A stretch of DNA of 61,991 bases, the filler included. It is 12 parts of 12 records of this genome, joined end to end, with 100 filler letters (N's around TTAATTAATTAA, not from the genome) between each part and the next. Parts side by side here need not be neighbours in the genome. Positions count along the whole stretch, not along the records: positions 55,588 to 58,815 come from SRR11831585_890; 11 more parts are not named here. One strand, written 5' to 3'. Positions 30,358 to 61,991 of this stretch are shown piece by piece. Below the pieces are notes generated by a model that was given only the letters and a program-made list of their open reading frames with translations, did no database searches and was not told the DNA's origin. Each line of letters starts with the position of its first letter. Position 1 is the stretch's first letter. Both the position numbers and the translations under genes were made by a program.

Positions 30358-30933
<576 letters not shown>

Positions 30934-35074: not shown

Positions 35075-35131
35075 AAACTAAGCGCACTTTGTCAACAGTC
35101 TAGCCCGATGGCATCACCATCGGGCCTCTTT

Positions 35132-39360: not shown

Positions 39361-40094
39361 TTACGGCCTCTTTTCAGTATCAGTTCACTCACCCACGGAC
39401 GGCGTTTTTCCATCAGCAAAATCAAATTACGCATCCGCATCAGCGTCAGCGTGGCAGACAGGAGCAGGAAGCCAAAAATCGACCAGCGCAGCGGCGAACG
39501 CATCGCCGGATCGATACTTTGCTGCATCCGCGTTGATCCCTGATGCAGGGTGTTCCACCACTCCACGGAGTAATGAATAATCGGCAGATTCACCACGCCA
39601 ATCAGCACCAGGATACCTGCCGCACGGCCCGCCAGACGGCGGTCGTCGAAGGCGTGCCACAGGGCAATCACACCCACATACAAAAACAGCAGCACCAGTT
39701 CAGAAGTCAGACGTGCATCCCATACCCACCAGGTGCCCCACATCGGTTTTCCCCATGCAGAGCCGGTAACCAGGGCAATAAAGGTAAACACGGCACCAAT
39801 GGGGGCCATCGCCGCCACCGCCAGGTTGGCCATTTTCATCTGCCAGACAAGGCCAATAAACGCTGCCACTGCCATTGATGCATAAATGCCCATCGACCAG
39901 ATCGCCGCAGGCACATGCAGGTAGATAATGCGGTAGCTATTTCCCTGCTGATAATCAGCCGGAGCAAAGCCGAATCCCCAGATCCAGCCGACGGTAAGCA
40001 CGACCACACTGGCAATTGCCAGCCACGGTATAAACCAGCCACAGATTTGATACAGCCGTGGTGGGATCGCCAGTTGATGCAGTGTTTTCCACAT
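39357..40094 (-). CDS. ccmC: Heme exporter protein CcmC
   Basis: WGKPMWGTWWVWDARLT motif. Confidence 0.97.
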   Translation of the reverse strand: MWKTLHQLAIPPRLYQICGWFIPWLAIASVVVLTVGWIWGFGFAPADYQQGNSYRIIYLHVPAAIWSMGIYASMAVAAFIGLVWQMKMANLAVAAMAPIGAVFTFIALVTGSAWGKPMWGTWWVWDARLTSELVLLFLYVGVIALWHAFDDRRLAGRAAGILVLIGVVNLPIIHYSVEWWNTLHQGSTRMQQSIDPAMRSPLRWSIFGFLLLSATLTLMRMRNLILLMEKRRPWVSELILKRGRK

Positions 40095-40135
40095 AGTTTC
40101 GATACCAGACTCGAACAAAAATCAGTAATCCAGCG

Positions 40136-40798
40136 TTATTGAATGCTGATTCGTAACGCTGCCGCCGTCGCAAAAGGACTTAATGTCGCGGTGCCTGCCA
40201 GCAACGCGCCTAAAATTGCCAGATACCCGTCAACGGGCAAATGCATAGAAGCCGCGTCCATCGCGGCGGTGGCAAAGATGAGTAATGGGATAGTCAGCGG
40301 TAACACCAGTATGCTGAGCAGCACACCACCGCGCTTAAGTCCCACTGTCAGCGCCACGCCCGGTGCACCGAGAAAGCCAAGCGTAGGCGTTCCCAGCAGC
40401 AGCGTCAGCGCCATCACTTGCCAGCCATAAACATCCATTCCCAGTAGCATTGCTACCAGTGGCGAAAGGATGAGTAACGGCAGACCGGTTACCATCCAGT
40501 GCGCCATCACCTTCGCCAGCACAACGGCGGGCAAGGGTAACGGCAACAACATCAATTGTTCAAGACTGCCGTCCTGCAAATCGTCACGGAACAGTCGTTC
40601 CAGCGCCAGCAAGGATGAAAGCAGCGCAGCAACCCAGATAATGCCCGGTGCAATACGCGCCAGCAGTTGCGGCTCCGGACCGATACTGAGCGGAAAAAGG
40701 GTAATTACAATCAGGAAGAACCACAGCGGGTTGGCGATTTCGGCGCTATGGCGAAACGCTACACGCAGCTCAAGACGGAAAATGCGCCAGAACATCAT
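40136..40798 (-). CDS. ccmB: Heme exporter permease CcmB
   Basis: [12 protein letters not shown] motif. Confidence 0.96.
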
Positions 40799-41418
40799 GC
40801 GGCCCTCGTTTGCGTCAGTGAAATGCGGCGAATTTTACTTTCAGCAACGTTGAGCGGCTGGTGGGTAGTCAGAATCACAATCCCCCCCTGCTCCGTATGC
40901 TGCGCCATACGCTGGGTCAGACGATCGACACCGTTAACGTCAATCGCGGTAAAAGGCTCGTCGAGGATCCATAACGTGGCACGGGTCAGCCACAGACGCG
41001 CTAAAGCGACGCGGCGTTGTTGCCCGGCCGAGAGCTGATTTACAGGAATATCTTCGAATCCGGCAAGCCCGGCCTGCGCCAGGGCTTCCAGACATTGTGC
41101 GGTATCGCCATCGCGATGATAAAAGTGCAGATTTTCTAACGCCGTCAGCCGGGTTTTGATCCCCGGCTGATGGCCTATCCATAACAGGTTTTGATGGTAG
41201 CTGTCGCGTACCTGATGCAAGGGCTGCCCTTGCCAGAGAACCTCGCCTGCGTCAGGGCGAGACAACCCCGTCAGCAAACGGAGAAGCGTTGTCTTCCCCG
41301 CGCCGTTGCTACCGGTGATTTGTACCCACTCTCCTGCGTTCAGCGTAAATGACAAGCCACTAAATAAGGTTCGTTCATCCCGCTCACAAAGTAACTCTCT
41401 GGCTTCAAGCATACCCAC
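40795..41418 (-). CDS. ccmA: ABC ATPase CcmA
   Basis: [13 protein letters not shown] and ILDEP motifs. Confidence 0.97.
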
Positions 41419-41430
41419 GCAATAACCCTG

Positions 41431-42033
41431 TTAAAAACCTGGCTCGACTTCACGCATATCGGGCAGCTTGTGCGCTATCCCTTTATGGCAATCAATACAG
41501 GTTTGCCCATCTTTCACCGCCTGGTCATGCATCTTCGCGGCAACCGATTTCTGGGCGGTTGTATCCATATACTCGAAGTTGTGACAGTTACGGCACTCCT
41601 GCGAGTTATTGTCCTTCATGCGCCGCCACTCATTCTGTGCCATCGTCAGACGATGAGCTTCAAATTTCTGCGGCGTGTCAATAACGCCAAAAATTTTACC
41701 ATACAGCTCTTTACTTGCTTTGAGCTTGCGTATCATCTTCGGCACAAACTCGTGCGGAACGTGACAATCCGGACAGGTCGCACGGACGCCGCTACGGTTG
41801 TTGTAGTGCACGGAATCCATGTATTCCTGATACACCGTGTTGCGCATTTCGTGGCAGCTAATGCAGAACTCTTCGGTATTGGCTTTTTCCATCCCGGTGT
41901 TAAAGCCACCCCAGAAGACGATGCCGCCAACAAAACCGATCAACAGCAGCGTCCCCAGCGCCAGACGGCTGGGGGTACGCCACCATTTCCACAGGCGCTT
42001 AATCAGACCAGGCTTACGGTCAGAATTTCCCAT
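41431..42033 (-). CDS. napC: Tetraheme cytochrome NapC
   Basis: Four CxxCH motifs. Confidence 0.97.
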   Translation of the reverse strand: MGNSDRKPGLIKRLWKWWRTPSRLALGTLLLIGFVGGIVFWGGFNTGMEKANTEEFCISCHEMRNTVYQEYMDSVHYNNRSGVRATCPDCHVPHEFVPKMIRKLKASKELYGKIFGVIDTPQKFEAHRLTMAQNEWRRMKDNNSQECRNCHNFEYMDTTAQKSVAAKMHDQAVKDGQTCIDCHKGIAHKLPDMREVEPGF

Positions 42034-42042
42034 AATAACCTC

Positions 42043-42492
42043 TTATTTCCCGTAACCTTTTGATGGGGTAAAGGTATTCCCCACGATTGGCGCGGTATCG
42101 GCCTGCGGTACGTGACATTGCAGACAGAAATAACGACGCGGAGCCACTTCCGCGCCCACTTTGCCGTCGCTGTCCATAAAGTGAGTAGGACTGATACGCG
42201 GCGCGCCAGTGGTGCGATAGCTTTCGACACCGTGGCACTGCAAGCAGCGATTGGTATTGGTCGTTACCTGATAACCTTCAACGCTATGCGGGATCATTGG
42301 CGGCTGATTCACATAGTTCAGCGGCATCCGATCCTGCTCTTTTGGCATCCGAATGGCCCCTTCCTGTGTCCCGGATACTTCCGGCGACTGGCTAAAATCG
42401 ACGCCATTAGCCGCCCAAACCGCGCCGCTTACCACCAGGGCCAGCATCGCCGTCCATTGACACAGCGCTTTCTTCAGGTCATGGCTTTTCAT
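42043..42492 (-). CDS. napB: Diheme cytochrome NapB
   Basis: Two CLQCH motifs; PPMIPH. Confidence 0.96.
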   Translation of the reverse strand: MKSHDLKKALCQWTAMLALVVSGAVWAANGVDFSQSPEVSGTQEGAIRMPKEQDRMPLNYVNQPPMIPHSVEGYQVTTNTNRCLQCHGVESYRTTGAPRISPTHFMDSDGKVGAEVAPRRYFCLQCHVPQADTAPIVGNTFTPSKGYGK

Positions 42493-43352
42493 GATTTCGC
42501 TCCCGAACTCCATCGTGTAGTTATTGTAAATACATCCTCAGAACAGACATCCACGCAGCGACCGCACGTCATGCAATCGCGGCTGGTGACCTGCACCGGG
42601 CTTTGTTCATCCAGCACCGGGGCACGTAGCACATGCGGTTCCGGGCAAACATGAAAACAATCCATACAGCGGTTACATTTCTGCCGATCGGTGGCCGCAA
42701 CGGTAATCACACCTTTGCTACCCAGCACGCCATACAGCGCGCCAACCGGACAAATGTGCCCGCACCAGCCGTGTTCAACGACCAGTAGATCAAATAAAAA
42801 CAGCGCGAGAATAAGCAGCGCGCCGCTGCCGAAGCCCATTACCAGGCTACGCCCCATCAGAGAAACGGGGTTGATCCATTCCCAAATGAGCGTGCCAGTT
42901 AAGGCTGATCCCACCAGAATGACCACCAACAGCACGTAGCGAATGTGGCGAGGGATCGTCGCAGACTGATTGAGGTCAAAGCGCCTGCGTAACCAGTTCG
43001 CTAAGTCGGTAATCGGGTTCAGCGGGCAGACCCAGCTGCAAAATAATCGCTTTCCCGCCAGGGCGTAGAGCACGGTGATAATCACCGCACCGGTCAACGC
43101 CACCGTGGCAGGCAGATGACCACTGGCAAGACTTTGCAGCGTCATCAGCGGATCGGTCAGCGGAACGGTGTCGAATAACAGGCTACTGCTGTAGTTGCCG
43201 TGCAAGATCCACACACCAAACCATGGACCGCTCAAAAACATCCCCAGCACGAAGAACTGACAAAGGCGACGTAACACCAGCCAACGGTGACTGCGCCACC
43301 AGCCTTTTTTCTCCAGCGCCTCGCGCCCGGCGTCACGTTTACGATTTGCCAT
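42489..43352 (-). CDS. napH: Ferredoxin-type membrane protein NapH
   Basis: CSWVCP and CxxCxxCxxxC motifs. Confidence 0.96.
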
Positions 43353-44034
43353 TGTTCCCCTCCAGCCAGCCGAAGCGGTAATGGTGACCTAACTCCCCTT
43401 TCGCCAGTGACAGCGGTAACACCTTGATTGCCGGTTGTTCCAGCACGCATACTTTTTCGCACTTACCGCAACCGGTACAGGCGTCGCTGTGAACCGTCGG
43501 CAGAAAGCGGGCGTGCTTACCGGTACGCGTGTTGCGCTCCAGCTCCAGGGTGATGGCCTCATCAATTTTCGGGCATTCGCGATAACAAACATCGCAGCGC
43601 AGCCCCTGAAAGTTGAGACAGTTTTCCTGGTCCACCAGTACCGCCAGCCCCATCCGCGCGTCGTCGATCGATTCAATCTCACGATCCAGCGCACCGCTTG
43701 GGCACACTTTGGCGCACGGAATGTCCTCACACATTTCGCAAGGAATATCCCGTGCGACAAAATATGGCGTGCCCGCCGACAGACCAGAGGCCAGCGTCGC
43801 CAGTTTTAAGGTGTCGTAAGGGCAAGCCTGAACACACTGACCGCAACGCACACAGGCACTGGCAAAGGCGTTCTCGTTTATGGCTCCGGGCGGGCGCAAC
43901 CGCACGCCAGATGCGCGTGCGGTTTGCTGTTGTAACCCCAGCGCCACACCCACGGCAGCCAGCCCGCCTGCTGTGCGAACGACATCGCGCAGAAAGCGGC
44001 GGCGACCATTTTGAGGTTTCGCTGACCGGGACAT
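43339..44034 (-). CDS. napG: Ferredoxin-type protein NapG
   Basis: Tat signal RRRFLR; four Fe-S motifs. Confidence 0.96.
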
Positions 44035-44040
44035 AATGGC

Positions 44041-44936
44041 TTACACCTTCTCCAGTTTGACCGCGCACTTCTTGAAGTCCGTCTCTTTCGAGAGCGGATC
44101 GGTCGCATCCAGCGTCAGTTTGTTAACCAACTGTGCGGCGTCGAAGAACGGCATGTACACCAGGCCCTGTGGCGGACGGTTACGACCGCGCGTTTCAACA
44201 ATCGAGATCACTTCGCCACGGCGAGAAACCACTTTCACTTTGTCGCCACGGCGCAGATCGCGCGCTTTCGCATCCAGCGGGTGAATAAACAGGACCGCTT
44301 CCGGGAAGGCGCGGTGCAGTTCTGGTACACGGCGAGTCATACTGCCGGTGTGCCAGTGCTCCAGAACGCGTCCGGTAGAGAGCCACAGGTCGTACTCTTC
44401 ATCCGGTGCTTCCGCCGCCGGTTCGAATGGCAGTGCGAAGATCACCGCTTTGCCATCCGGTTTACCGTAGAACTTATAGCCTTCGCCCGCTTTCACGTAC
44501 GGGTCGTTACCTTCGCTGTAACGCCACTGCGTTTCTTTACCGTTCACCACCGGCCAGCGCAGACCGCGCGCTTTGTGGTAGTCATCGAACGGTGCCAGAT
44601 CGTGACCGTGACCGCGACCAAACCATGCGTACTCTTCGAACAGCCCTTTTTGCAGATAGAAGCCCAGCTCGCGGGATTCATCGTTCAGCTGATCTTCCGC
44701 CAGTTCGGATACCGGGAATTTGCTCACTTCCGGTGTGGCATACAGCACTTCGTACAGCGTTTTGCCACGCAGTTCCGGTTTCTTCGCCAGCAGATCTTCC
44801 GGCCATACTTCTTCAGTTTTGAAGCGGCGGGAGAACTGGACTAACTGCCAGAGATCCGATTTCGCTTCGCCCGGTGCCTGTACCTGTTGACGCCAGAACT
44901 GAGTACGGCGTTCGGCGTTACCGTAAGCGCCTCTTC
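44041..44936 (-). CDS. napA: Periplasmic nitrate reductase catalytic subunit, C-terminal part (contig-truncated)
   Basis: [30 protein letters not shown]. Confidence 0.96.
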
Positions 44937-45036: not shown

Positions 45037-45643
45037 CCCCGTCAGCATCATCACACACGAAACCGCAGCCTGCGTCTCTCCGTGTCACACACCAGTGTCG
45101 GTTCGCTGAGCGGCCGTCTCTCCATGCAACAGCGTGCTGCGGAGGACGCACTTCGGCTCATGTCCCAACTCGCGCTGTGGATCACACACTGCACGGGGGA
45201 GACCCTGCCCCAGGAAACCCACAATATGTTGTGGTTCCTGCGGGACGGTGCGCTCTTGCTGCGTCTGCTGGACACGCTGTTCCCATCGGAAATCACCTCT
45301 ACCTCCTCACAAACCACATCCCAACCAGCGCCCTCCGCTGCCCCGTCCCGCTCTGCTGTGTTGCAGCATCGAGATCTGACCCGTTTCAGTCCTTCCACCC
45401 GCTATCATGCCTCCCAACATACCCTGGGGCTGGCGGCTCGCCCCCTGATTCGGTGCGATCCGTACCGCGAACGGCGCAACGTGCAACGGTTCATTGACGG
45501 GTGCCGGCGTCTGGGCGTCTCTTCGGTGTTTGCCGTGGATGATCTGTGTGAGATGCGTGACGTGTTTGGTGTGATTACCTGTTTGGTGGAGCTGGCTGAG
45601 CTGTCCGGTGCATGTGGAAAGGCGCCCCTTCCCAGTGCGGAAA
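45037..45643 (+). CDS. Calponin-homology (CH) domain exon of a eukaryotic protein; boundaries uncertain
   Basis: LALWI..LRDGALLLRLLDTLFP..NVQRFIDGCRRLGV..FAVDDLCE..VITCLVELA. Confidence 0.75.
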
Positions 45644-46430
45644 GTGTGAGCTGTAGTTTGGCGGCGGGGCGGGTGCAATGGATGTGTGATTGTATGTCAC
45701 GAGCCATGTCATCGTAAGCCATCGCGTTGTTTGCTTACGTCTGGGAACATGTAAAGGGTGTTTTGTTTGTTATGAGTGCAGCAGTAGTAGTGTTGTGTTT
45801 GTATGTGCGTGTTTGTGTGTACAGAGTATGGGATGGTGCTTCGTTCCTCCGCTATTCTCTTTCTCTCCCTTTCTTTGTTGGTGAACGAATTCGGGTTTCT
45901 TTTTATGAGTTGGTGTTTTTCTCGTAAAACCGAAAAATTTGTTTGTGTATGTATGTGTGTGTATCACTGTGTCAGAATGGTTCGTTTCAGTATATATACT
46001 GGACACACATGAATCCCCATTACCCTATTGCTCACTGCTACTGCTTGAAAACAAACGTTTCATATATTATCGTAACTATCATGCAGCATCATAGTTCTAC
46101 TTGCGGTTCCTCGCTCTCACTCCAATCGACATCCCAACTATCTTGCTCTCTCACACAAATAACACACACACACACACACACTCGTACATACTTTAAGCAC
46201 AGAGCGATCATTCCACTCTCTCACAGTACATTGATTCATTGGCTCGTGCAACACAGACAAACAAACAAATAAAACCAAGATGACTTGCACGCCTCGTATC
46301 GTCGCATTTCCCACACATAGCCCCTAACGACCCACGAAACATGATCACACGGGAAACAAATGATTCAGTTCCTGGTCTCTATGTCAAAACACACACACAC
46401 AGCACACAGCACACACCACCGCACATCGTC

Positions 46431-47052
46431 TCAGCGTGGGCCAGGGACCGGGTGCACCTCCGTGGGAGTCATAGTCGTAGCGCTGTTACTGCCACTGCCG
46501 CTGGTGTTTCCGTTGTTGCTAGAGCCGTTGCTGTTGTTGGTGCCGTTGCTGTTGGGGATCTCGGACACCACGATGGGCTGGATGGTTTCGACATCGTCTC
46601 GGTCGATCACCCATTGAATCTACACACACAGAGAGGAGAGACACACACAGCGCACATTCGAATGAGTGGAGAGAGAGAGGAGGGGGGGGAGCAAATGAGG
46701 TACATGAATGGATCAACCAACACGCATACAAAACCCACAAACAGTGCAATGTACCTCCTGCAACCCGTACGCAGCAGGCTTTAGCTCGATCACCGTATGC
46801 AGCGGTACGTCAATATTGGGGCAGTCCTCCACAGGCTTATTCCGGAAATAGGCCAGCAGGGCGCGGTTCACCGCCTGATGGCCAATGACCAAAACAGGCG
46901 TACGCAGCGATTCGAGCTCCAGAATGACCGTTTCGAGCCTGTCAATGACGTCTTCGTAGCTCTCGCCACGTGGATACCGGTATCGCAGCTTGTCCTTACG
47001 ACGTGCCTCCCAATCGGAGGGATATGCCTCTTGAATCGCCTCATATGTCATG
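46431..47052 (-). CDS. PFKFB: 6-phosphofructo-2-kinase/fructose-2,6-bisphosphatase, last two exons (46755-47052, 46431-46619)
   Basis: [53 protein letters not shown]. Confidence 0.9.
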
Positions 47053-47184
47053 CTGCACACACACACACACAAACAAACAAACAANNNNNNNNNNNNNNNN
47101 NNNNNNNNNNNNNNNNNNNNNNNNNNNNTTAATTAATTAANNNNNNNNNNNNNNNNNNNNNNNNNNNNNNNNNNNNNNNNNNNN

Positions 47185-47206
47185 CTCGCTCCGGCGGGGT
47201 TTTTTG
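47185..47206 (+). ncRNA. istR: 3' terminator end of the IstR sRNA (truncated)
   Basis: CTCGCTCCGGCGGGGTTTTTT upstream of ivbL, as I recall for E. coli. Confidence 0.6.
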
Positions 47207-47334
47207 TTATCTGCAATTCAGTACAAAACGTGATCAACCCCTCAATTTTCCCTTGCTGAAAAATTTTCCATTGTCTCCCCTGTAAAGCTGTGCTTGTATA
47301 AATATTGTTAAACACAAAACCAACAAGGTCCCCA

Positions 47335-47433
47335 ATGACTACTTCCATGCTCAACGCAAAACTACTACCAACTGCGCCATCCGCCGCAGTGGTCGTCGTG
47401 CGTGTGGTGGTGGTCGTCGGCAATGCGCCGTAG
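47335..47433 (+). CDS. ivbL: ilvBN leader peptide (Val/Leu-rich)
   Basis: MTTSMLNAKLLPTAPSAAVVVVRVVVVVGNAP*. Confidence 0.95.
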   Translation: MTTSMLNAKLLPTAPSAAVVVVRVVVVVGNAP

Positions 47434-47456
47434 GGACTGGAACAACACACGATTCC

Positions 47457-47490
47457 AAAACCCCGCCGGCGCAAACCGGGCGGGGTTTTT
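47457..47490 (+). terminator. ilvBN attenuator terminator
   Basis: AAAACCCCGCC..GGCGGGGTTTTT. Confidence 0.9.
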
Positions 47491-47538
47491 CGTTTAAGCA
47501 CCTCCCGGAAAGTCGGCCCAGAAGAAAAGGACTGGAGC

Positions 47539-49227
47539 ATGGCAAGTTCGGGCACAACATCGACGCGTAAGCGCTTTACCGGCGCAGAATTTATCGTTCA
47601 TTTCCTGGAACAGCAGGGCATTAAGATTGTGACAGGCATTCCGGGCGGTTCTATCCTGCCTGTTTACGATGCCTTAAGCCAAAGCACGCAAATCCGCCAT
47701 ATTCTGGCCCGTCATGAACAGGGCGCGGGCTTTATCGCTCAGGGAATGGCGCGCACCGACGGTAAACCGGCGGTCTGTATGGCCTGTAGCGGACCGGGTG
47801 CGACTAACCTGGTGACCGCCATTGCCGATGCGCGGCTGGACTCCATCCCGCTGATTTGCATCACTGGTCAGGTTCCCGCCTCGATGATCGGCACCGACGC
47901 CTTCCAGGAAGTGGACACCTACGGCATCTCTATCCCCATCACCAAACACAACTATCTGGTCAGACATATCGAAGAACTCCCGCAGGTCATGAGCGATGCC
48001 TTCCGCATTGCGCAATCAGGCCGCCCAGGCCCGGTGTGGATAGACATTCCTAAGGATGTGCAAACGGCAGTTTTTGAGATTGAAACACAGCCCGCTATGG
48101 CAGAAAAAGCCGCCGCCCCCGCCTTTAGCGAAGAAAGCATTCGTGACGCAGCGGCGATGATTAACGCTGCCAAACGCCCGGTGCTTTATCTGGGCGGCGG
48201 TGTGATCAATGCGCCCGCACGGGTGCGTGAACTGGCGGAGAAAGCGCAACTGCCTACCACCATGACTTTAATGGCGCTGGGCATGTTGCCAAAAGCGCAT
48301 CCGTTGTCGCTGGGTATGCTGGGGATGCACGGCGTGCGCAGCACCAACTATATTTTGCAGGAGGCGGATTTGTTGATAGTGCTCGGTGCGCGTTTTGATG
48401 ACCGGGCGATTGGCAAAACCGAGCAGTTCTGTCCGAATGCCAAAATCATTCATGTCGATATCGACCGTGCAGAGCTGGGTAAAATCAAGCAGCCGCACGT
48501 GGCGATTCAGGCGGATGTTGATGACGTGCTGGCGCAGTTGATCCCGCTGGTGGAAGCGCAACCGCGTGCAGAGTGGCACCAGTTGGTAGCGGATTTGCAG
48601 CGTGAGTTTCCGTGTCCAATCCCGAAAGCGTGCGATCCGTTAAGCCATTACGGCCTGATCAACGCCGTTGCCGCCTGTGTCGATGACAATGCAATTATCA
48701 CCACCGACGTTGGTCAGCATCAGATGTGGACCGCGCAAGCTTATCCGCTCAATCGCCCACGCCAGTGGCTGACCTCCGGTGGGCTGGGCACGATGGGTTT
48801 TGGCCTGCCTGCGGCGATTGGCGCTGCGCTGGCGAACCCGGATCGCAAAGTGTTGTGTTTCTCCGGCGACGGCAGCCTGATGATGAATATTCAGGAGATG
48901 GCGACCGCCAGTGAAAATCAGCTGGATGTCAAAATCATTCTGATGAACAACGAAGCGCTGGGGCTGGTGCATCAGCAACAGAGTCTGTTCTACGAGCAAG
49001 GCGTTTTTGCCGCCACCTATCCGGGCAAAATCAACTTTATGCAGATTGCCGCCGGATTCGGCCTCGAAACCTGTGATTTGAATAACGAAGCCGATCCGCA
49101 GGCTTCATTGCAGGAAATCATCAATCGCCCTGGCCCGGCGCTGATCCATGTGCGCATTGATGCCGAAGAAAAAGTTTACCCGATGGTGCCGCCAGGTGCG
49201 GCGAATACTGAAATGGTGGGGGAATAA
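47539..49227 (+). CDS. ilvB: Acetohydroxyacid synthase I large subunit
   Basis: RHEQGA and GDGSLMMN motifs; 562 aa. Confidence 0.98.
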   Translation: MASSGTTSTRKRFTGAEFIVHFLEQQGIKIVTGIPGGSILPVYDALSQSTQIRHILARHEQGAGFIAQGMARTDGKPAVCMACSGPGATNLVTAIADARLDSIPLICITGQVPASMIGTDAFQEVDTYGISIPITKHNYLVRHIEELPQVMSDAFRIAQSGRPGPVWIDIPKDVQTAVFEIETQPAMAEKAAAPAFSEESIRDAAAMINAAKRPVLYLGGGVINAPARVRELAEKAQLPTTMTLMALGMLPKAHPLSLGMLGMHGVRSTNYILQEADLLIVLGARFDDRAIGKTEQFCPNAKIIHVDIDRAELGKIKQPHVAIQADVDDVLAQLIPLVEAQPRAEWHQLVADLQREFPCPIPKACDPLSHYGLINAVAACVDDNAIITTDVGQHQMWTAQAYPLNRPRQWLTSGGLGTMGFGLPAAIGAALANPDRKVLCFSGDGSLMMNIQEMATASENQLDVKIILMNNEALGLVHQQQSLFYEQGVFAATYPGKINFMQIAAGFGLETCDLNNEADPQASLQEIINRPGPALIHVRIDAEEKVYPMVPPGAANTEMVGE

Positions 49228-49230
49228 GCC

Positions 49231-49521
49231 ATGCAAAACACAACTCATGACAACGTAATTCTGGAGCTCACCGTTCGCAACCATCCGGGCGTAATGACCC
49301 ACGTTTGTGGCCTTTTTGCCCGCCGCGCTTTTAACGTTGAAGGCATTCTTTGTCTGCCGATTCAGGACAGCGACAAAAGCCATATCTGGCTACTGGTCAA
49401 TGACGACCAGCGTCTGGAGCAGATGATAAGCCAAATCGATAAGCTGGAAGATGTCGTGAAAGTGCAGCGTAATCAGTCCGATCCGACGATGTTTAACAAG
49501 ATCGCGGTGTTTTTTCAGTAA
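49231..49521 (+). CDS. ilvN: AHAS I small subunit
   Basis: ACT domain NHPGVM. Confidence 0.97.
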
Positions 49522-49596
49522 CCGCTCAAGGCTTGAACAACATCGCGCTTATCGTTAAGGTAAGCGCGTATTTTTTTTACCCGCCAGGACAAGACC

Positions 49597-50187
49597 ATGA
49601 TCACCGTTGCCCTTATAGACGATCACCTCATCGTCCGCTCCGGCTTTGCGCAGCTGCTGGGGCTGGAACCTGATTTGCAGGTAGTTGCCGAGTTTGGTTC
49701 GGGGCGCGAGGCGCTGGCGGGGCTGCCGGGGCGCGGTGTGCAGGTGTGTATTTGCGATATCTCCATGCCCGATATCTCCGGTCTGGAGCTGCTAAGCCAG
49801 CTGCCGAAAGGTATGACGACGATTATGCTCTCCGTTCACGACAGTCCTGCGCTGGTTGAGCAGGCGCTTAACGCGGGGGCACGCGGCTTTCTTTCCAAAC
49901 GCTGTAGCCCGGATGAACTCATTGCTGCGGTGCATACGGTTGCCACGGGCGGCTGTTATCTGACGCCGGATATTGCCATTAAACTGGCATCCGGTCGTCA
50001 GGACCCGCTAACCAAACGTGAACGCCAGGTGGCGGAAAAACTGGCGCAAGGAATGGCGGTGAAAGAGATTGCCGCCGAACTGGGCTTGTCACCGAAAACG
50101 GTACACGTCCATCGCGCCAATCTGATGGAAAAACTGGGCGTCAGTAACGACGTAGAGCTGGCGCGCCGCATGTTTGATGGCTGGTGA
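49597..50187 (+). CDS. uhpA: Response regulator UhpA
   Basis: REC domain plus LuxR HTH. Confidence 0.97.
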
Positions 50188-51689
50188 TGAAGACGTTGTT
50201 CTCCCGCTTAATTACCGTTATTGCCTGCTTTTTTATCTTCTCTGCCGCATGGTTTTGCCTGTGGAGTATCAGCCTGCATCTGGTTGAGCGCCCTGATATG
50301 GCGGTGCTGTTATTTCCGTTTGGTCTGCGTCTGGGGCTAATGCTGCAATGCCCGCGCGGATACTGGCCCGTATTGCTGGGCGCGGAGTGGCTGCTGATTT
50401 ACTGGCTAACGCAGGCGGTCGGTTTAACCCATTTTCCGTTATTGATGATCGGTAGTTTACTGACGTTACTGCCCGTAGCGCTGATCTCGCGCTATCGCCA
50501 TCAGCGTGACTGGCGCACCTTGCTGTTACAGGGGGCGGCGTTAACGGCGGCGGCGTTGTTGCAGTCGCTGCCCTGGCTTTGGCACGGCAAAGAGTCGTGG
50601 AATGCGCTGTTGCTGACTTTAACTGGCGGCCTGACGCTGGCCCCGATATGTCTGGTGTTCTGGCACTATCTCGCCAATAACACCTGGCTGCCGCTCGGTC
50701 CGTCACTGGTTTCTCAGCCAATCAACTGGCGCGGGCGACATCTGGTCTGGTACTTGCTGCTGTTTGTTATCAGTCTCTGGCTCCAGTTGGGATTGCCGGA
50801 CGAACTGTCGCGCTTTACGCCATTCTGTCTGGCGCTGCCGATTATCGCGCTGGCCTGGCACTATGGTTGGCAAGGGGCGCTGATTGCGACGTTGATGAAC
50901 GCCATCGCGCTGATCGCCAGTCAAACCTGGCGCGATCATCCGGTGGATTTATTGCTCTCGCTGCTGGTGCAAAGTCTGACAGGGTTGTTGCTTGGCGCTG
51001 GCATCCAGCGGTTGCGTGAACTTAACCAGTCGCTGCAAAAGGAACTGGCGCGCAATCAGCATCTGGCTGAACGGTTGCTGGAAACCGAAGAGAGCGTGCG
51101 CCGTGATGTGGCGCGTGAGCTGCATGATGATATCGGTCAGACCATCACTGCTATTCGTACTCAGGCGGGCATTGTTCAGCGGCTGGCGGCAGATAACGCC
51201 AGCGTGAAGCAGAGCGGGCAGCTCATCGAACAACTATCGCTGGGCGTTTACGACGCGGTGCGCCGTTTGTTGGGTCGGTTACGTCCGCGCCAGTTGGATG
51301 ATCTCACCCTGGAGCAGGCCATCCGCTCACTGATGCGGGAAATGGAGCTGGAAGGGCGCGGTATTGTCAGCCATCTCGAATGGCGAATCGATGAATCAGC
51401 GTTAAGCGAAAACCAGCGCGTGACGCTGTTTCGTGTCTGCCAGGAAGGGCTGAACAACATTGTGAAACATGCTGATGCCAGCGCGGTCACCCTGCAAGGC
51501 TGGCAGCAGGATGAACGGTTGATGCTGGTTATTGAAGACGATGGCAGCGGTTTGCCGCCGGGTTCCGGGCAACAAGGTTTTGGCCTCACCGGAATGCGCG
51601 AGCGCGTAACGGCGCTGGGTGGCACATTACACATTTCCTGTCTGCACGGCACGCGTGTCAGCGTTTCTCTACCTCAACGCTATGTCTAA
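50187..51689 (+). CDS. uhpB: Sensor histidine kinase UhpB
   Basis: [14 protein letters not shown]1 TM region. Confidence 0.97.
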
Positions 51690-51698
51690 GGTTTGATG

Positions 51699-53018
51699 AT
51701 GTTGCCGTTTCTGAAAGCGCCTGCCGATGCGCCATTAATGACTGATAAATATGAAATTGATGCCCGCTATCGCTACTGGCGTCGGCATATTCTGCTGACC
51801 ATCTGGCTGGGTTACGCGCTGTTTTACTTCACGCGGAAAAGTTTTAACGCCGCCGTACCAGAAATCCTTGCTAACGGCGTGCTCAGCCGTAGCGATATCG
51901 GCCTGTTAGCGACCCTGTTTTACATTACCTATGGCGTGTCGAAGTTTGTCTCCGGCATTGTCAGCGATCGCTCAAATGCCCGTTATTTTATGGGGATAGG
52001 GCTTATCGCCACGGGCATTATCAACATTCTGTTTGGCTTCTCGACGTCGCTATGGGCGTTTGCCGTGCTCTGGGTGCTGAACGCCTTTTTCCAGGGCTGG
52101 GGTTCACCGGTGTGTGCGCGTCTGTTAACGGCCTGGTATTCACGTACCGAGCGCGGCGGTTGGTGGGCATTATGGAACACGGCGCATAACGTCGGCGGCG
52201 CACTCATTCCCATTGTGATGGCAGCGGCTGCGCTGCATTACGGCTGGCGTGCCGGGATGATGATTGCTGGTTGTATGGCGATAGTCGTGGGGATTTTTCT
52301 CTGCTGGCGGCTACGCGATCGCCCGCAGGCGTTAGGTTTACCGGCGGTCGGTGAATGGCGACACGACGCGCTGGAAATTGCTCAACAACAAGAAGGGGCA
52401 GGGTTGACGCGTAAAGAGATCCTCACCAAATATGTGTTGCTGAATCCGTATATCTGGCTGCTTTCGTTTTGCTATGTGCTGGTCTATGTGGTCCGGGCGG
52501 CGATCAACGACTGGGGCAATTTGTATATGTCCGAGACACTGGGCGTCGATCTGGTCACGGCGAATACGGCAGTGACGATGTTTGAACTGGGCGGATTTAT
52601 CGGTGCGCTGGTAGCCGGTTGGGGCTCGGACAAATTGTTTAACGGCAACCGAGGGCCGATGAATTTGATTTTCGCCGCCGGAATTTTGCTTTCAGTCGGC
52701 TCCCTGTGGCTGATGCCATTTGCCAGCTACGTGATGCAGGCAACCTGCTTCTTCACCATTGGTTTTTTTGTCTTTGGCCCACAGATGTTAATCGGTATGG
52801 CGGCGGCAGAGTGTTCCCACAAAGAGGCGGCAGGGGCGGCGACGGGGTTTGTCGGCTTGTTTGCTTATCTGGGGGCGTCGCTTGCTGGTTGGCCGCTGGC
52901 GAAAGTACTCGATACCTGGCACTGGAGCGGATTTTTTGTGGTTATCTCTATCGCCGCCGGGATTTCCGCACTGCTGTTACTGCCCTTTTTGAACGCCCAG
53001 ACACCGCGCGAAGCGTGA
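51699..53018 (+). CDS. uhpC: Glucose-6-phosphate sensor UhpC (MFS)
   Basis: YFTRKSF; MFS topology; synteny. Confidence 0.96.
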   Translation: MLPFLKAPADAPLMTDKYEIDARYRYWRRHILLTIWLGYALFYFTRKSFNAAVPEILANGVLSRSDIGLLATLFYITYGVSKFVSGIVSDRSNARYFMGIGLIATGIINILFGFSTSLWAFAVLWVLNAFFQGWGSPVCARLLTAWYSRTERGGWWALWNTAHNVGGALIPIVMAAAALHYGWRAGMMIAGCMAIVVGIFLCWRLRDRPQALGLPAVGEWRHDALEIAQQQEGAGLTRKEILTKYVLLNPYIWLLSFCYVLVYVVRAAINDWGNLYMSETLGVDLVTANTAVTMFELGGFIGALVAGWGSDKLFNGNRGPMNLIFAAGILLSVGSLWLMPFASYVMQATCFFTIGFFVFGPQMLIGMAAAECSHKEAAGAATGFVGLFAYLGASLAGWPLAKVLDTWHWSGFFVVISIAAGISALLLLPFLNAQTPREA

Positions 53019-53155
53019 TGCATCTCACCTTTTCACTTCATATCCGGCAAAACTAAGAAATTTTCCAGGTTTTGCCTGGACGCTATCTCAGGCCTGATTT
53101 GCTGCTGATTTTTACAATGCATGCCTCACGCAGGTATTCATTTCAGGAGTAACCC

Positions 53156-54547
53156 ATGCTGGCTTTCTTAAACCAGGTTCGCAAGCCGACCCTGGACCTT
53201 CCGCTCGAAGTGCGGCGCAAAATGTGGTTCAAACCGTTCATGCAATCCTACCTGGTGGTCTTTATCGGCTACCTGACGATGTACCTGATTCGCAAGAACT
53301 TTAACATCGCGCAGAACGATATGATTTCGACCTACGGGTTGAGCATGACGCAGCTGGGGATGATCGGCCTGGGTTTCTCCATCACTTATGGCGTGGGTAA
53401 AACGCTGGTTTCCTACTACGCCGACGGCAAAAACACCAAACAATTCCTGCCGTTCATGCTGATCCTCTCTGCTATTTGTATGCTGGGCTTCAGTGCCAGT
53501 ATGGGCAGCGGCTCGGTTAGCCTGTTCCTGATGATTGCCTTCTACGCCTTAAGCGGCTTTTTCCAGAGTACCGGCGGTTCGTGCAGTTACTCCACCATCA
53601 CCAAATGGACGCCGCGTCGTAAACGCGGGACATTCCTCGGTTTCTGGAATATTTCTCACAACCTTGGCGGTGCAGGCGCAGCAGGTGTGGCGCTGTTCGG
53701 GGCAAATTACCTGTTCGATGGCCATGTCATCGGCATGTTTATCTTCCCGTCGATTATCGCGCTGATTGTCGGTTTTATCGGCCTGCGTTACGGCAGCGAC
53801 TCCCCGGAATCTTATGGCCTCGGCAAAGCTGAAGAACTGTTCGGCGAGGAGATCAGCGAAGAGGACAAAGAGACAGAATCTACCGATATGACCAAGTGGC
53901 AGATCTTTGTTGAGTATGTGCTGAAAAACAAAGTGATCTGGCTGCTGTGCTTCGCCAACATTTTCCTCTATGTGGTACGTATTGGTATCGACCAGTGGTC
54001 AACCGTATACGCGTTCCAGGAACTGAAACTCTCTAAAGCGGTGGCGATTCAGGGCTTTACGCTGTTTGAAGCTGGTGCGCTGGTCGGTACGCTGCTGTGG
54101 GGCTGGCTCTCTGACCTGGCGAACGGTCGCCGTGGCCTGGTGGCCTGCATCGCGCTGGCGCTGATTATCGCCACGCTCGGTGTGTATCAACATGCCAGTA
54201 ACGAATATATCTATCTGGCTTCTCTCTTTGCGTTGGGTTTCCTGGTCTTTGGCCCGCAATTGTTGATTGGTGTGGCTGCTGTTGGCTTTGTACCTAAAAA
54301 AGCGATTGGCGCTGCCGATGGTATTAAAGGCACCTTTGCTTACCTGATTGGTGACAGCTTTGCCAAGTTAGGTCTGGGAATGATTGCCGATGGGACGCCG
54401 GTATTCGGCCTTACCGGCTGGGCAGGCACCTTCGCCGCGCTGGATATCGCCGCGATTGGTTGTATCTGCCTGATGGCGATAGTGGCGGTAATGGAAGAAC
54501 GCAAAATCCGCCGCGAGAAAAAAATTCAGCAGTTGACAGTGGCATAA
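53156..54547 (+). CDS. uhpT: Hexose phosphate:Pi antiporter
   Basis: [22 protein letters not shown]. Confidence 0.98.
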
Positions 54548-54565
54548 ACGTAACTGGTGACTTTT

Positions 54566-54591
54566 GCCCGGCATGACGCCGGGCTTTTTTT
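54566..54591 (+). terminator. Intrinsic terminator after uhpT
   Basis: GCCCGGC-ATGAC-GCCGGGC followed by a T run. Confidence 0.85.
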
Positions 54592-54592
54592 A

Positions 54593-55487
54593 TTATTCCG
54601 TGACTTCCAGCGTAGTGAAGGCAAACTTCTCGCCATCAAATAGCCCCTGACTGGTTAGTTTTAGCGCGGGGATCACTGGCAGAGAAAGAAACGCCATCTG
54701 AATAAACGGCTCATCGGGTAACGGACCGCATTCACGGGCGGCGGCTTTCAAGGCGTCAATTTGTTCCGCCAGCGACTGCGCCGTGTCGGTGCTCATCAGC
54801 CCGGCAATGGGTAACGGCAGATGACTTTGTACCTGGCCGTTACGTACCACGCACAGCCCGCCGCCATCCTGAATCACCTGATTGACCGCCAGCGCCATCT
54901 CTTCGGCACTGCGACCGATCACCACAATATTATGGCTGTCATGGCTGACCGTCGCAGCCAGCGCACCTTCATTCAGTCCAAAGCCGCCAAGCAAACCACA
55001 AGCCGGAGCCAGCCGTTGCCCGTAACGCTCAAGTACGGCAATAAAGCTCACATCATCGCGATCAAAACCATTTTCGCTGTAGACGCTGGAGTGGGAGTGC
55101 GTAATCAATTCGTTATGGATGACGTCAATGACCCGATAGCGTTTTCCGGGCGTAAATTGCAGGGCAAAGTCGCTGGCGGAAACTGGCTGGCGGGCAATGG
55201 TGTTGCCATATGGCGGAGCGGATTGTGCCAGTCTCGCCGACTCTTCCGCCTGTAAGGTTTGCGCATCAATCGGCTCGCCTTTCACCAGTACCTGCTGCAC
55301 CGTGACCTTACGCGCATCGCTCAACAGGACGATATCGGCCTGCTTGCCGGGTGCCAGTAAGCCGAGGTGATTCAGACCAAAGTGGCGCGCCGTCGACCAG
55401 CTGGCGACGCGATATGCCACATGCAGCGGCACATTGTGTTGTTCGATCAGGCGGCGAATTAAGGCATCGATGTGTCCTTCATGGGCG
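54593..55487 (-). CDS. adeD: Adenine deaminase, C-terminal part (contig-truncated)
   Basis: [16 protein letters not shown] and FLSLPVIP motifs. Confidence 0.95.
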
Positions 55488-55587: not shown

Positions 55588-58299
55588 ACCACTGCCCTGA
55601 CGACGCATACCTAAGCAACAACACATGATTAACACGGGAACATGGACCCAACACAAACTAAGTCGATCAATGCACACGACACAGTAAGACGGGACGCGTC
55701 ACATTTCCACGCACTTGATAGAGAGCACCGGCTCTGTGTGCAGAGTCAGCTGATACTTCTTGTTGGGTTCCACCAGGTTCAAAATCTCAATCTTCATCGA
55801 ATCCATTCTGCACAACAACAACACATACAGCACAAAACACACAACGGATCAGACACAGAACATGCGCACGCTGACGACACCAAGGGGCCACTCCCAACAA
55901 GCCTGATGTAAGAGGACCGTACCCCACGGAGATATAGGGCGAGGAGGGAGAGGCTGCCAGTGCAAAGATCTTGTCAGGGAACACATAGTCCTTGAGCACC
56001 TTGCGGGAGGCGATGTCCCACACACGCAGCTGCTTGTTGAGCGTGCCCGTCACCAGCTGCACTCACACTCCGCATGTCAGCACGTTGACACGCACACAGC
56101 GCCGCAACGCACCTTGGTCCCGTCGTTGCTGATGTCCACCGACGTTACCGTCTCTGTGTAGTTGGGCATGGTGCTGCAGGACACAACCCGCACCGGTTAG
56201 CTCGACCAGGACAGAGGGACGACGGATAGCGATAATGCCACCAGGAAACACAAACAGCGACATTGAGAAAAAAAAATCTGACACGAATGCACATAGCGCC
56301 GGACAACAACATGACAGGCAACATACGCAACGCAGGTTTTGGAGGCCAGATCCCACACATGCACGCCCGTGTTGGACGCGATGAAGACGGTGCGGGAGTC
56401 CGCACTGCACACGGTCTGGTACGCAGAGTCGAACTTGCCTGCGAACCGCGACACCAACTTGGGGATGTCCTGCAGCGCATCACCTATAAGGGCCCCACCC
56501 CATACACACAGCAGACGATGTTGCACACGTACCCCCTCGTAGTCGTAGAGCAGCACAGGAGAGCGCTCGCCGGCCACGAGCACGTGTGAGGAGCTGGGTG
56601 TCATGCGGATGCCGCGCACAAAGTTGACGTCGGGGAAGGCCTGGTCGGCACAGCTGATGCGGGTGATGGGCTCCTTGACCTCAAGGGTGGACCACAGACA
56701 GAACGCACCCTGCACAGATAGACAGACAGCACATGCAGACGGTGGCAGACAAACGTCAGAGCAGTGCGTGTGTCAACGCGGGGACGGGTGGACGCACCTT
56801 GTGGCCTGTGAGAACACGCGTGTGGGAGGAGCCGAAGCATACTGCCGAGACGACCTCGTGGTTGGAGATGGTGGCCAGGTGCTGGGCACTCACGGGGGCG
56901 CGGTTCGTGTCCACGGGCTTGTCGTCGTTCACTGCACAACACACACGGGTCAGAACGAAAGACGGGCATAAGAGCAGGTACACACGCACACACACATAGG
57001 CGCGCAACGCACGAGCACGTACCGTCCATGTCCTCCGCGAGGGCACCGGCGTCCACGGACTGCGTTGTGTGTGTGGGTGCGGGAGGGACTGATGCGTTGG
57101 GGGTGAGCGGTGTGAACGCTCCAACACGCTATACGGAGACACGTCGGCAACAGCACGGACAAATCACAGTACATCACACGCATATGGCACACACAAAATA
57201 CATACTGGACGTGTGGCACCAGGGACGGGTGGTTGATGCGCAACCATTGAACCCTATCGCAACAGACGGGATGAGCAATGCATACGAAGTCGGATTGACT
57301 ACAGAAACCGCCACTCACATGTACACGCGCAAAAGGGATACAGACGCGCATAATCGCATGCTAAAATATAAACGCACCAGTAATGCGGGCGCAGGAACAG
57401 CAACAGGCTGCACCACTGTCGCACCATAATCACCCGCGGTCTAACCACACACACAAACGCACACACGCAAAGCATCAGCGCACAATACAAACAAGACGGC
57501 GAGTGAGAGACTGTACCCTGCCGCGTGCTGCGAGGCCATCTACACACAATAACGCGAGTTAGACAGCCACACGGAGCAAATAGCAAACAGCGTACTTGCA
57601 TAAGCTGCGGGGCGGGGTCGAAGCGGCTCGCGATCTGAACTCACACCGCTCTGCACCATGCCACAACATTAGAACTACTGTAGAACACAGTGGGACAGCA
57701 ACAAACCTTTATCCGTTTCTCGATATCATCGAATGTTACGTTCTTGGCAGTCTCCAGCTCAGCTTTTGCAGACGCTTGCTCCTGTCAACGACATAAGAAT
57801 TATACAGACGGAGTAACTGACGCACCTCGTCAGGTAGCTTGGAAATAAGACTGTCCACCAACTTTCCAAGTCTTGCATTAATTTCTGATTCCCGATGCCA
57901 CTCAAGGTTTAGATTATATGAGAGCTCCAACGCCTGAACTGCGGTTAGAAAAGGCAACAGGCGATCCACGGACCTTCTCGTTGGCCTGCCGAATTTCAGT
58001 GCTTTCAAGTCGTACATGGTCGACCTCGACTCGTGCGCTTTGGAGCTGTCTCTCAAGTAATACAAAGTCGGCCTTTATAGCGTCGCAGTACTCCGATACC
58101 GTTCCCTACACAAACAATGACAAATGACTCAAACGCACAGGCGAAACAACATACCACTCGCTTCTGTAAAGTTGGAGCAGCTGTAATCCGTTTTACTTGC
58201 TACATGAAAGTCAGTATGGGCAGCAAACGCAGCAACAAAACGTACCATGCTCGGCGTCGAGTCAGCCGCCGGCCGCTTTTTGGCCTTCGGCTCCGACAT
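55588..58299 (-). CDS. TLE: Groucho/TLE transcriptional co-repressor (Q domain plus WD40); about 16-17 exons visible, 3' truncated
   Basis: Q domain TVSEYCDAIKADF..ELSYNLNLEWHRESEINARL..AKNVT; WD40 AQHLATISNHEVVSAV..TGHK|GAFCLW..VDISNDGTK|LVTG..KYQLTLHTEPVLSIK|YASSGQW. Confidence 0.88.
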
Positions 58300-58779
58300 A
58301 ATCACACAGAATGTCTGAGTGTGATCGTCGACTGTCGGTCCGTACACAAAGTGATCGTAAATGTGCACGGTGGTGTTGTTGGACGGGACTTTCGGACATG
58401 TGACTAAGCAAATGATCTAAGATCCACCTCGCTAGCGGCGTATTACAGAACCCTACATTCATCATTGCGAAACCAACTTCTGCCGCAACAAACAGGCATC
58501 CGCTCCTTTGCTGAGTCCTTTTTCCGCTGCGTTCGCACTTCGCAGGTACTGAAATGGGCTGGTCTGGGTTGCCTATGGGCGATTTCTACTTGTTGTTTCG
58601 TCTCTTCTTGATCGCATTCGTCAATGGGGTCTTGTGGGTTCTTTGTCTGCTACCTCGAATTCTATTCACTATTATGTGTTATTATGATGTTGTACATTTG
58701 ATCTGTCAGCTGTACTGTGTTGGTCATTTTCCTGTTCATACCGCGTAATGACCGTGTGTTGTATTCTGTTGTTTTAGAA

Positions 58780-58815
58780 ATGGTGTCTCTTCGCCTGCAG
58801 AAGCGCCTTGCGGCT
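58780..58815 (+). CDS. RPL19: 60S ribosomal protein L19 (eL19) N-terminus, truncated; probable 5'-UTR intron 58546-58777
   Basis: MVSLRLQKRLAA; pyrimidine tract CCTTTTTCC at 58517-58525. Confidence 0.75.
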
Positions 58816-60798: not shown

Positions 60799-61311
60799 TC
60801 AAATCGGTCTTACATCATCGGACGCGCAGGACAGCACTAACTGATGTAGGTGCTCGAGCAAGCTGGGCGTCGCCTCTCTTATCTCGTCTCTCACCGCCTC
60901 ATACAACGCAAGAGGACCACCGTACGGATCCGCAATGTCCTTCCTGTCCCCTGCGCCCATTACAAATTCACGCATGAGGAGCAGGTGCTTGGGGACGGGC
61001 CTCGCGTGCGTCTTAATCACAGTGCGGTGCGACTCACCCATGCAGATGACGGCGAACGCTTCGTCAAGTAACTTCTGTGAGAGAGGCTGTGCGCGATGGG
61101 TGGAGATGTCGATGCCGATCTTGCCCAGGGCGATCACAGAATTTTCGGAGACGGGGTCGCCCATCCGTGCGGAAATTCCAGCGGAGAGGACACGAGCTGA
61201 TTGTAGTGGTCCGGGGTGCCTCGCTAGAGCTTGTTGCACAATTGCAGCAGCCATTGGGCTGCGACATGTGTTGCCTGTACAGATTATGACGATAGGGCCC
61301 AAGGTGGACAT
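60799..61311 (-). CDS. Low-molecular-weight phosphatase, YwlE/arginine-phosphatase-type signature, intronless
   Basis: CTGNTCRSPMA P-loop, SAG, and DIADPYGG motifs. Confidence 0.92.
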   Translation of the reverse strand: MSTLGPIVIICTGNTCRSPMAAAIVQQALARHPGPLQSARVLSAGISARMGDPVSENSVIALGKIGIDISTHRAQPLSQKLLDEAFAVICMGESHRTVIKTHARPVPKHLLLMREFVMGAGDRKDIADPYGGPLALYEAVRDEIREATPSLLEHLHQLVLSCASDDVRPI

Positions 61312-61967
61312 CAGAAGGCTCGCTGGGGCTCGCTTACAGTAACTTCACTCAGTGAAATGAAATCCGAGTTCGAATTGGTAGCCACTGGCCCAACTGGATT
61401 GTTTTCTGAGGAGTTTCGGAATTTTCCCGTGAAAGATCGATATCGATACGCAAGGTCACTAGCTAACGGTCACTGGGTCCAATTCGGCGATCTTTCTTTT
61501 GAAACCACCACATACGAACTCATCCTCAGCGCGCACCACAGCAAAAACTAGACTACACAATAACTAACTAAACGTATCTTCCTCTTCAACAACTGCAAAA
61601 ACTATATTCCCAACCAACCGCAAAAATACGTACAACAACATGCATTTAGCTCTACCACACACAACACATTAAGCTGCCTAACAGACCATCGTCACAAGCA
61701 GGTTACAAGCCTGCTAAACGGGCGCGAATAATAATAACAACGTCGACAACACAGCGCACAAACAAACTGCCAATACAAGTACACACAGATACCCCATACA
61801 AATCACTCCACACAAAACCGGCAATCAGCAACAGTAAGTTGAGTGACTCAAAATGCCTCTCACTCAAACAGAGCTTAGAAAGCGGAGAGTTTGAGCAGCC
61901 GACAAAAGACCACCAACAGCCCATCCCCCTCACATCACATCACTCAGCGCAAAACACAGATACGTAT

Positions 61968-61991
61968 ACACACACACACACACACACACAC
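61968..61991. repeat. (CA)n microsatellite at contig end; similar tracts at 19054-19077, about 21889-21911, 32124-32147 and 47056-47084
   Basis: Read directly from the sequence. Confidence 0.9.

Follow-up and report, generated by a model that had tools for sequence, protein, structure and literature searches.

Groucho/TLE acts as a central co-repressor in animal development, where its Q domain forms tetramers, the pore of its propeller binds EH1 and WRPW motifs, and transcription is repressed. The DNA analysed here (the window, 61,991 bases in all) is composed of 12 separate contigs joined by N44-TTAATTAATTAA-N44 spacers, and the adjacency of its pieces is therefore biologically meaningless. 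One piece, the Groucho contig, carries most of what is probably a real, intron-rich co-repressor gene of the Groucho/TLE family, belonging to the eukaryote within a mixed assembly, itself likely a relative of the malawimonads. The predicted protein would comprise a TLE_N (Q) oligomerisation domain, a Pro/Ala-rich linker and a TLE-type seven-bladed WD40 propeller, of which the last blade or so is truncated.

The distribution of Groucho outside animals was described by Copley (2016; PMC4943189), who used the TLE_N domain (Groucho) versus the Tup_N domain (Tup) as a proxy for orthology in sequences drawn from NCBI nr of 2015, the Broad multicellularity set and the Torruella transcriptomes. Orthologues containing TLE_N are reported there in Ichthyosporea and Corallochytrium, and none in choanoflagellates or filastereans. 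Outside Holozoa, a TLE_N protein is reported in the metamonad Trimastix pyriformis, and a WD40 protein of Naegleria gruberi falls on the Groucho branch without TLE_N. On this one transcript and one protein rests the case made there for a very early, pre-holozoan origin, possibly in the ancestral eukaryote, and the same study notes that contamination, transfer or tree artefacts are possible absent more genomes of free-living protists. The sources named there would be without a malawimonad proteome, and malawimonads are not named in its main text. The literature searched, supplementary sequence lists excepted, contains no report of Groucho outside Holozoa beyond that study, and no paper in it includes both "Malawimonas" and "Groucho".

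Tup1 and Groucho are probably sister families with an analogous role, and a pair of residues in the ligand pocket distinguishes them: F661 and E677 in TLE1 versus Y580 and L596 in Tup1 (Copley 2016). The most divergent unicellular taxa include exceptions to this pair. The plant proteins TOPLESS and LEUNIG are described in the same source as functionally analogous WD40 co-repressors with LisH/CTLH-type N-termini, and TOPLESS has two propellers.

The order of TLE_N, linker and WD40 is common to the gene in the window and to animal TLE1, for which structures of the Q domain (4om2/4om3) and the WD40 propeller (1gxr) are available. Exons 3 and 4 lie without gaps on the Q domain, exons 12 to 16 are collinear with 1gxr, and the word DISNDGTK is identical. 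The differences are an identity to human TLE1 of only 24-53% over the aligned exons, a linker that is not alignable, an Asp in the pocket, a truncated C-terminus and a host that is probably not an animal. Like the Groucho proteins of Ichthyosporea, Corallochytrium and Trimastix (PMC4943189), the protein is a TLE_N-bearing WD40 protein of an apparently unicellular eukaryote. Trimastix, which is likened here by its published description, also lies outside Holozoa, whereas the present lineage appears to be malawimonad-like. The Naegleria protein is likewise a non-holozoan protein on the Groucho side, but it is without the TLE_N domain present here. Fungal Tup1 (WD40 structure 1erj, Tup_N structure 3vp8) also combines a coiled-coil N-terminus with a seven-bladed WD40 propeller in a co-repressor. 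In contrast to Tup1, the protein in the window has no Tup_N match and a pocket pair of F/D rather than Y/L, and Tup1 is matched only by its generic exon 15. No domain of the kind that begins TOPLESS and LEUNIG was found in exons 3 to 5.

Gene structure and domain matches

The gene model on the minus strand consists of 17 exons and 16 GT-AG introns of 40-153 nucleotides, which together yield an open frame of 491 amino acids that leaves the contig end (Table 1). The preliminary description, which was made from the window sequence, started the gene region at position 55588. The region is as described, but this position is merely the end of the contig, and the gene is therefore truncated there; in the register of TLE1, the propeller lacks about 58 residues at its C-terminal end. 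Splice donors are of the unusual GT[AG][CT]G[TC] kind, with G at position +5 in 15 of the 16 introns, and the introns are rich in T and G (0.53-0.78 T+G on the sense strand). No stop occurs inside any exon that has homology support. All five N-terminal peptides that had been proposed earlier are encoded on the minus strand by exons 1 to 5, bounded by GT...AG and ending on whole codons. The basic stretch in the first of these exons may be a nuclear localisation signal.

Translations of the exons were used as unaltered queries. Nine exon translations were scanned against Pfam at E<=10, and a set of nine exon queries was compared with 177,635 distinct PDB sequences. In Pfam, exon 3 matches only TLE_N (PF03920; 23.4 bits, E 8.4e-5, profile positions 4-41), and exon 4 also matches only TLE_N (21.8 bits, E 2.6e-4, profile positions 48-81). 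The two matches are independent, consecutive in the profile and, once the 40-nucleotide intron between them is removed, share a common offset of +2. Neither Tup_N (PF08581) nor LisH/CTLH nor any other coiled-coil family is matched by exons 3 to 5, and six of the nine exon translations, including exon 5, match nothing in Pfam at this threshold. The only PDB matches of exon 3 (4om3 residues 12-49, E 0.34, 13 of 38 residues identical) and of exon 4 (4om3 residues 57-85, E 0.035, 12 of 29 identical) are to the Q domain of TLE1, with one offset (+10) maintained across the junction of the two exons; identities were counted in the alignments. The earlier claim that the peptides align with the TLE Q domain without gaps is thus borne out for exons 3 and 4, but not confirmed for exon 5, which has no match in Pfam or PDB. 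TLE_N was detected in just one of 150 open reading frames (ORFs) scanned from the small contigs, and in neither the nearest prokaryote genome nor any of 14 control genomes.

Matches in the propeller region are to the same protein. The stretch 56329-56709 is a stop-free read-through of a 63-nucleotide intron, and its 127-amino-acid translation spans exons 12 and 13. The best PDB match of this query is TLE1 (1gxr, E 0.028), and four of the 14 other matches listed are to TLE6. Exons 12 and 13 (11 of 46 and 13 of 47 residues identical to TLE1) become contiguous on 1gxr when the 21 residues coded by the intron are removed. TLE1 is the sole PDB match of exon 14 (nine of 17 residues identical), which includes DISNDGTK, and of exon 16 (14 of 30). 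Between these two, the 44 residues of exon 15 and a split codon exactly fill 1gxr residues 198-242. Exons 12 to 16 are collinear with 1gxr residues 85-271, with only four small indels, and the TLE1 register is kept exactly at the junctions 3/4, 12/13, 13/14 and 14/15/16, including four junctions in the WD40 region. Over the nine queries, TLE1 is the top or only PDB match of five (exons 3, 4, 12-13, 14 and 16), three are blank, and one is generic.

The TLE-type WD40 region that had been proposed is supported by exons 12 to 16, whose register is exact over four junctions, with exon 15 generic when taken alone. The individual words cited for it fare differently. DISNDGTK is identical to TLE1, but the longer word DISNDGTKL straddles the junction of exons 14 and 15, which falls between K and L. 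The likeness of HEVVSAV to HGEVVCAV is visible by eye, but it requires a one-residue gap relative to TLE1, and exon 11 alone has no match in PDB. A search with TLE_N, Tup_N and WD40 models had been suggested for the spliced protein; carried out exon by exon, it gives TLE_N in exons 3 and 4, below the cut-off in each, WD40 in exon 15, and no Tup_N. The Pro-rich linker also appears in the model, as a Pro/Ala-rich stretch that is at most a possible counterpart of the central GP/CcN/SP regions of animal Groucho; the exons that encode it have no homologues to confirm them, their structure is uncertain, and the model is tentative in this part.

In the ligand pocket, the second residue of exon 16 is an Asp that aligns with the pocket Glu of TLE1, where 1gxr residue 244 is provisionally equated with E677. 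A Phe at residue 31 of exon 15 lies 16 residues upstream of this Asp, which equals the spacing of F661 and E677, and the Phe is placed by register only. The putative pair is neither the F/E of Groucho nor the Y/L of Tup; its first position is Groucho-like, its second is a conservative change, and both differ from Tup. With TLE_N as the sole family matched by exons 3 and 4, no Tup_N at E<=10, and a WD40 region that follows TLE1 in order, the sequence supports the earlier view of the protein as a divergent orthologue of Groucho/TLE rather than Tup1. By analogy with the animal protein, the Q domain would form coiled-coil tetramers, the face of the central pore of the WD40 propeller would bind short EH1- or WRPW-like motifs of DNA-binding transcription factors, and the oligomer recruited in this way would repress transcription through contacts with chromatin and histone deacetylases.

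Host of the gene and alternative explanations

The host was placed by means of an AMP deaminase gene on another contig of the window. A 109-amino-acid query (29184-29510) had 6,510 protein matches at E<=1e-10, and the listing covers the best 120 of them. Its BLASTP identity is 98% to a Logan protein, 89% to two EukProt proteins, which are both from the malawimonad Gefionella okellyi, and 85% to another Logan protein. Among these best 120, the next matches reach at most 72%, and the record at 72% is flagged as a contaminant by its source; further matches are to Brassica (70%), Echinamoeba (70%) and named Amoebozoa and Euglenozoa (55-70%). Of 118 retrievable fragments, 40 (all the named ones plus the top-ranked) entered a maximum-likelihood tree, in which the window sequence groups with the 98% sequence (support 100/97) and then with Gefionella (99/84). 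The host is thus quite likely to be a malawimonad relative, and on that account most likely lies outside Holozoa, as the preliminary description had considered, and outside Opisthokonta. No rRNA is present within the window.

Several features connect the Groucho contig indirectly with the same organism. Its tetranucleotide profile correlates with those of eight other small contigs (r 0.59-0.84), among them the contigs with AMP deaminase (0.72) and with a RagC gene (0.82). Correlations with the three Escherichia coli contigs of the window are 0.22-0.32, and these contigs correlate at 0.92 among themselves. The seven introns of the RagC gene, read by eye, have GTGCGT/GTATGY donors and are TG-rich, as in the Groucho gene, and CA/TG-rich spacers are common to the Groucho contig and other small contigs. 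If the host is a malawimonad relative, the Groucho contig is very likely native to it.

A number of observations speak against a native Groucho/TLE gene, and some of them concern the identity of the protein. The TLE_N scores of exons 3 and 4 are each under the 32-bit curated cut-off when taken alone, exon 5 alone is unmatched in both Pfam and PDB, and the E-values of single exons in PDB are weak (0.028-1.5). Exon 15 matches six generic WD40 or beta-propeller families in Pfam; in PDB it matches WDR5 (8e-11) and many generic WD40 proteins, including Tup1 (28.2 bits, summed over repeats), with TLE1 absent among the 60 matches listed. On their own, neither exon 11 nor the latter half of exon 15 has a PDB match. 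For the stretch of exons 12 and 13, the ESM Atlas shows only generic beta-propeller clusters, and the recognition score of 2009 is under the reliability mark of 2300. The pocket contains Asp rather than Glu. The sub-threshold TLE_N scores, the preference of exon 15 for WDR5 and Tup1 over TLE1 and the generic Atlas clusters would suit a Tup1-like or generic WD40 protein whose coiled coil resembles TLE_N by heptad composition only. This reading is nevertheless very unlikely: at E<=10, exons 3 and 4 match TLE_N exclusively, at consecutive profile positions and in one register, with neither Tup_N nor another coiled coil; the TLE1 Q domain is the sole PDB match of both exons; TLE1 numbering is exact at four WD40 junctions; and the pocket pair is F/D in place of the Tup pair. 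Other points concern the gene model. Linker exons 6 to 10 have no homology support, and exons 6 to 9 sum to 189 nucleotides, so their omission also preserves the frame. The GC content at third codon positions (GC3) contrasts sharply between the N-terminal exons 2 to 5 (0.27-0.55) and the WD40 exons 11 to 16 (0.71-0.90, or 0.82-0.90 in exons 11 to 15), with values of 0.31-0.62 in exons 6 to 9 and 0.69 in exon 10. Errors in the modelled linker exons, or a true gradient along the gene, may account for this heterogeneity. The unsupported linker and the jump in GC3 could also point to a pseudogene, or to a model that fuses a short Q-domain gene with a separate neighbouring WD40 gene, but both are highly improbable: the frame is uninterrupted through canonical sites in all 17 exons, the homology-supported exons are free of stops, and the family is defined by an architecture in which a single polypeptide carries a Q domain and then WD40 (Copley 2016).

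The remaining adverse points concern provenance. An exon 12 query against 5.8 billion clustered proteins (including EukProt and NCBI) gave six candidates among longer proteins, none at E<=0.01; no relative was found, and Gefionella likewise gave no match. The 127-amino-acid read-through query against 1.84 billion representatives gave six matches and again no relative; five of the six, when checked with Pfam, are NB-ARC/WD40, Ig-like or other generic repeat proteins, and none has TLE_N. In metagenome contigs, 131 pattern matches included no confirmed relatives. The host assignment depends on one 109-amino-acid fragment that is on a contig other than the Groucho contig, and a second host marker, the C-terminal exon of RagC, matches just two metagenome proteins (65% and 52%). 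Since RagC is a universal gene and itself has no close database match, the missing Groucho relative is weak evidence. The Groucho contig could be contamination from a holozoan, such as an ichthyosporean, Corallochytrium or a fast-evolving animal, in which case the gene would be an ordinary, known Groucho. The assembly is mixed, with one of its three E. coli contigs 100% identical to K-12 DH5alpha, the host is named from another contig, and TLE_N-containing Groucho is established in holozoan protists (Copley 2016). This explanation is nevertheless unlikely, given that the contig shares its tetranucleotide profile, its TG/CA-rich spacers and its style of donor with other eukaryote-like contigs, that the identity to human TLE1 is so low, and that a collection including EukProt and NCBI proteins offers no close match. 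Alternatively, the gene might be native to the protist now but acquired from a holozoan by horizontal transfer, and would then be uninformative on an early origin. TLE_N is patchily distributed, being found only in Holozoa and Trimastix in the account of Copley (2016), which names transfer or contamination as an alternative, and no Gefionella orthologue was retrieved. Transfer is improbable all the same, because 16 introns of host style and a host-like composition imply long residence, and the divergence of the sequence from animal TLE1 is large; little weight attaches to the missing Gefionella orthologue, since the universal gene RagC also lacks a Gefionella match.

Bearing on the origin of Groucho

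Malawimonads branch close to the deepest divisions among eukaryotes. Where Groucho came from matters for understanding how gene regulation in animals was put together. It is possible, although we stop a little short of favouring it, that the complete Groucho architecture (TLE_N with a TLE-type WD40) is native to malawimonads and vertically inherited. If so, this lineage, taken with Holozoa, the metamonad Trimastix and the discobid Naegleria, would date Groucho and the Groucho/Tup duplication to the last eukaryotic common ancestor or near it, with many later losses, including those in fungi, choanoflagellates, filastereans and plants. Recruitment of a Groucho co-repressor by short motifs would in that case be ancestral to eukaryotes and not particular to Holozoa.

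The preliminary description suggested that a host outside Holozoa would push back the origin of Groucho-mediated repression. That is overstated, because both the TLE_N protein of Trimastix and the Groucho-branch protein of Naegleria were already presented by Copley (2016), and the gene strengthens that published case for an early origin rather than opening it. The non-animal distribution as such was described in 2016; what is new here is that another, probably deep-branching, lineage is added and that the copy is genomic, carries introns and has both domains. Were a third deep lineage, independent of the other two, to carry such a copy with 16 introns of host style, that would be evidence of the sort for which that study asked. 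Contamination of a transcriptome is a less ready explanation for a gene seen in genomic sequence with many introns. The gene would also offer a tractable system, neither animal nor fungal, for asking whether recruitment of the EH1/WRPW type predates animals. Current views are not overturned by it; a published hypothesis is made firmer.

Feature coordinates and the other contigs

Table 1. Features of the Groucho contig and of other contigs, by position in the window
Feature	Positions	Strand	Description
Groucho contig	55588..58815	.	11th piece, 3,228 bp, GC 0.535, N/TTAATTAATTAA spacers either side
Exon 1	58246..58299	-	54 nt; putative ATG start, donor GTACGT, basic stretch
Exon 2	58155..58199	-	45 nt; no homology support; GC3 0.27
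Exon 3	57974..58105	-	132 nt; first half of TLE_N (Q) domain
Exon 4	57826..57933	-	108 nt; second part of TLE_N domain
Exon 5	57707..57781	-	75 nt; presumed end of Q domain; splice sites and frame
Linker exons 6-10 (tentative)	57023..57650	-	frame-consistent GT-AG model, Pro/Ala-rich, not alignable
Exon 6	57596..57650	-	
Exon 7	57517..57539	-	
Exon 8	57378..57440	-	
Exon 9	57206..57253	-	
Exon 10	57023..57128	-	
Exon 11	56798..56931	-	134 nt; start of WD40 propeller, HEVVSAV stretch; GC3 0.87
Exon 12	56533..56709	-	177 nt; WD40, aligned to TLE1 1gxr 85-126
Exon 13	56327..56469	-	143 nt; WD40, aligned to TLE1 1gxr 129-176
Exon 14	56113..56173	-	61 nt; WD40, DISNDGTK; TLE1 1gxr 181-197
Exon 15	55923..56056	-	134 nt; WD40 with canonical WD motif
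Exon 16	55715..55807	-	93 nt; WD40, KYQL..LH stretch; TLE1 1gxr 243-271
Exon 17	55588..55610	-	23 nt; truncated by contig end
AMP deaminase, C-terminal part	29184-29621	+	contig 29183-32147
Calmodulin-like ORF	30361-30933	-	contig 29183-32147; complete, apparently intron-free; adjoins AMP deaminase
RagC/Gtr2-type GTPase gene	32480-34447	+	multi-exon, about 8 exons read by eye
CH (calponin-homology) domain ORF	45037-45714	+	
Histidine-phosphatase (PFK2/FBPase2-like) exon, by eye	46716-47084	-	at contig end, opposite strand to the CH ORF
Low-molecular-weight phosphotyrosine phosphatase ORF	60802-61344	-	181 aa, uninterrupted
Erse small RNA, enterobacterial	11576-11827		on a bacterial contig

Three of the 12 contigs are bacterial and contain long bacterial ORFs (1-18953, 35054-44936 and 47185-55487). 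The last of these, which adjoins the Groucho contig in the window, corresponds to the ilvB-uhp-adeD region of E. coli and is 100% identical to strain K-12 DH5alpha over 8,303 bases. Because of this identity, the bacterial fraction looks like carry-over from a cloning host into a eukaryote assembly. The idea that E. coli was the prey of the protist was rejected, since the contig is identical to a cloning strain.

The remaining nine contigs are 2-3 kb in length, with fragmented ORFs and eukaryotic genes that include AMP deaminase, a Gtr1/RagA-family gene, an EF-hand protein, Upf2, a CH-domain protein and the TLE_N gene. His_Phos_1 was matched in two of the 150 ORFs scanned with Pfam, and these matches are not assigned to particular ORFs. 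The nearest Atlas clusters of the low-molecular-weight phosphatase ORF are bacterial (Verrucomicrobiota and Bacillota), and its contig falls with the eukaryotic ones in composition (r 0.78 against the Groucho contig). The ORF may be a gene of bacterial type carried by the protist, or else come from a second contaminant; being bacterial in type, it looks uninformative on the host. CA/TG-rich low-complexity tracts are common throughout the eukaryote-like contigs, in introns as well as in spacers, for example at 19054-19385, 21920-22244 and 61650-61991, and translate as runs of T-H or C-V.

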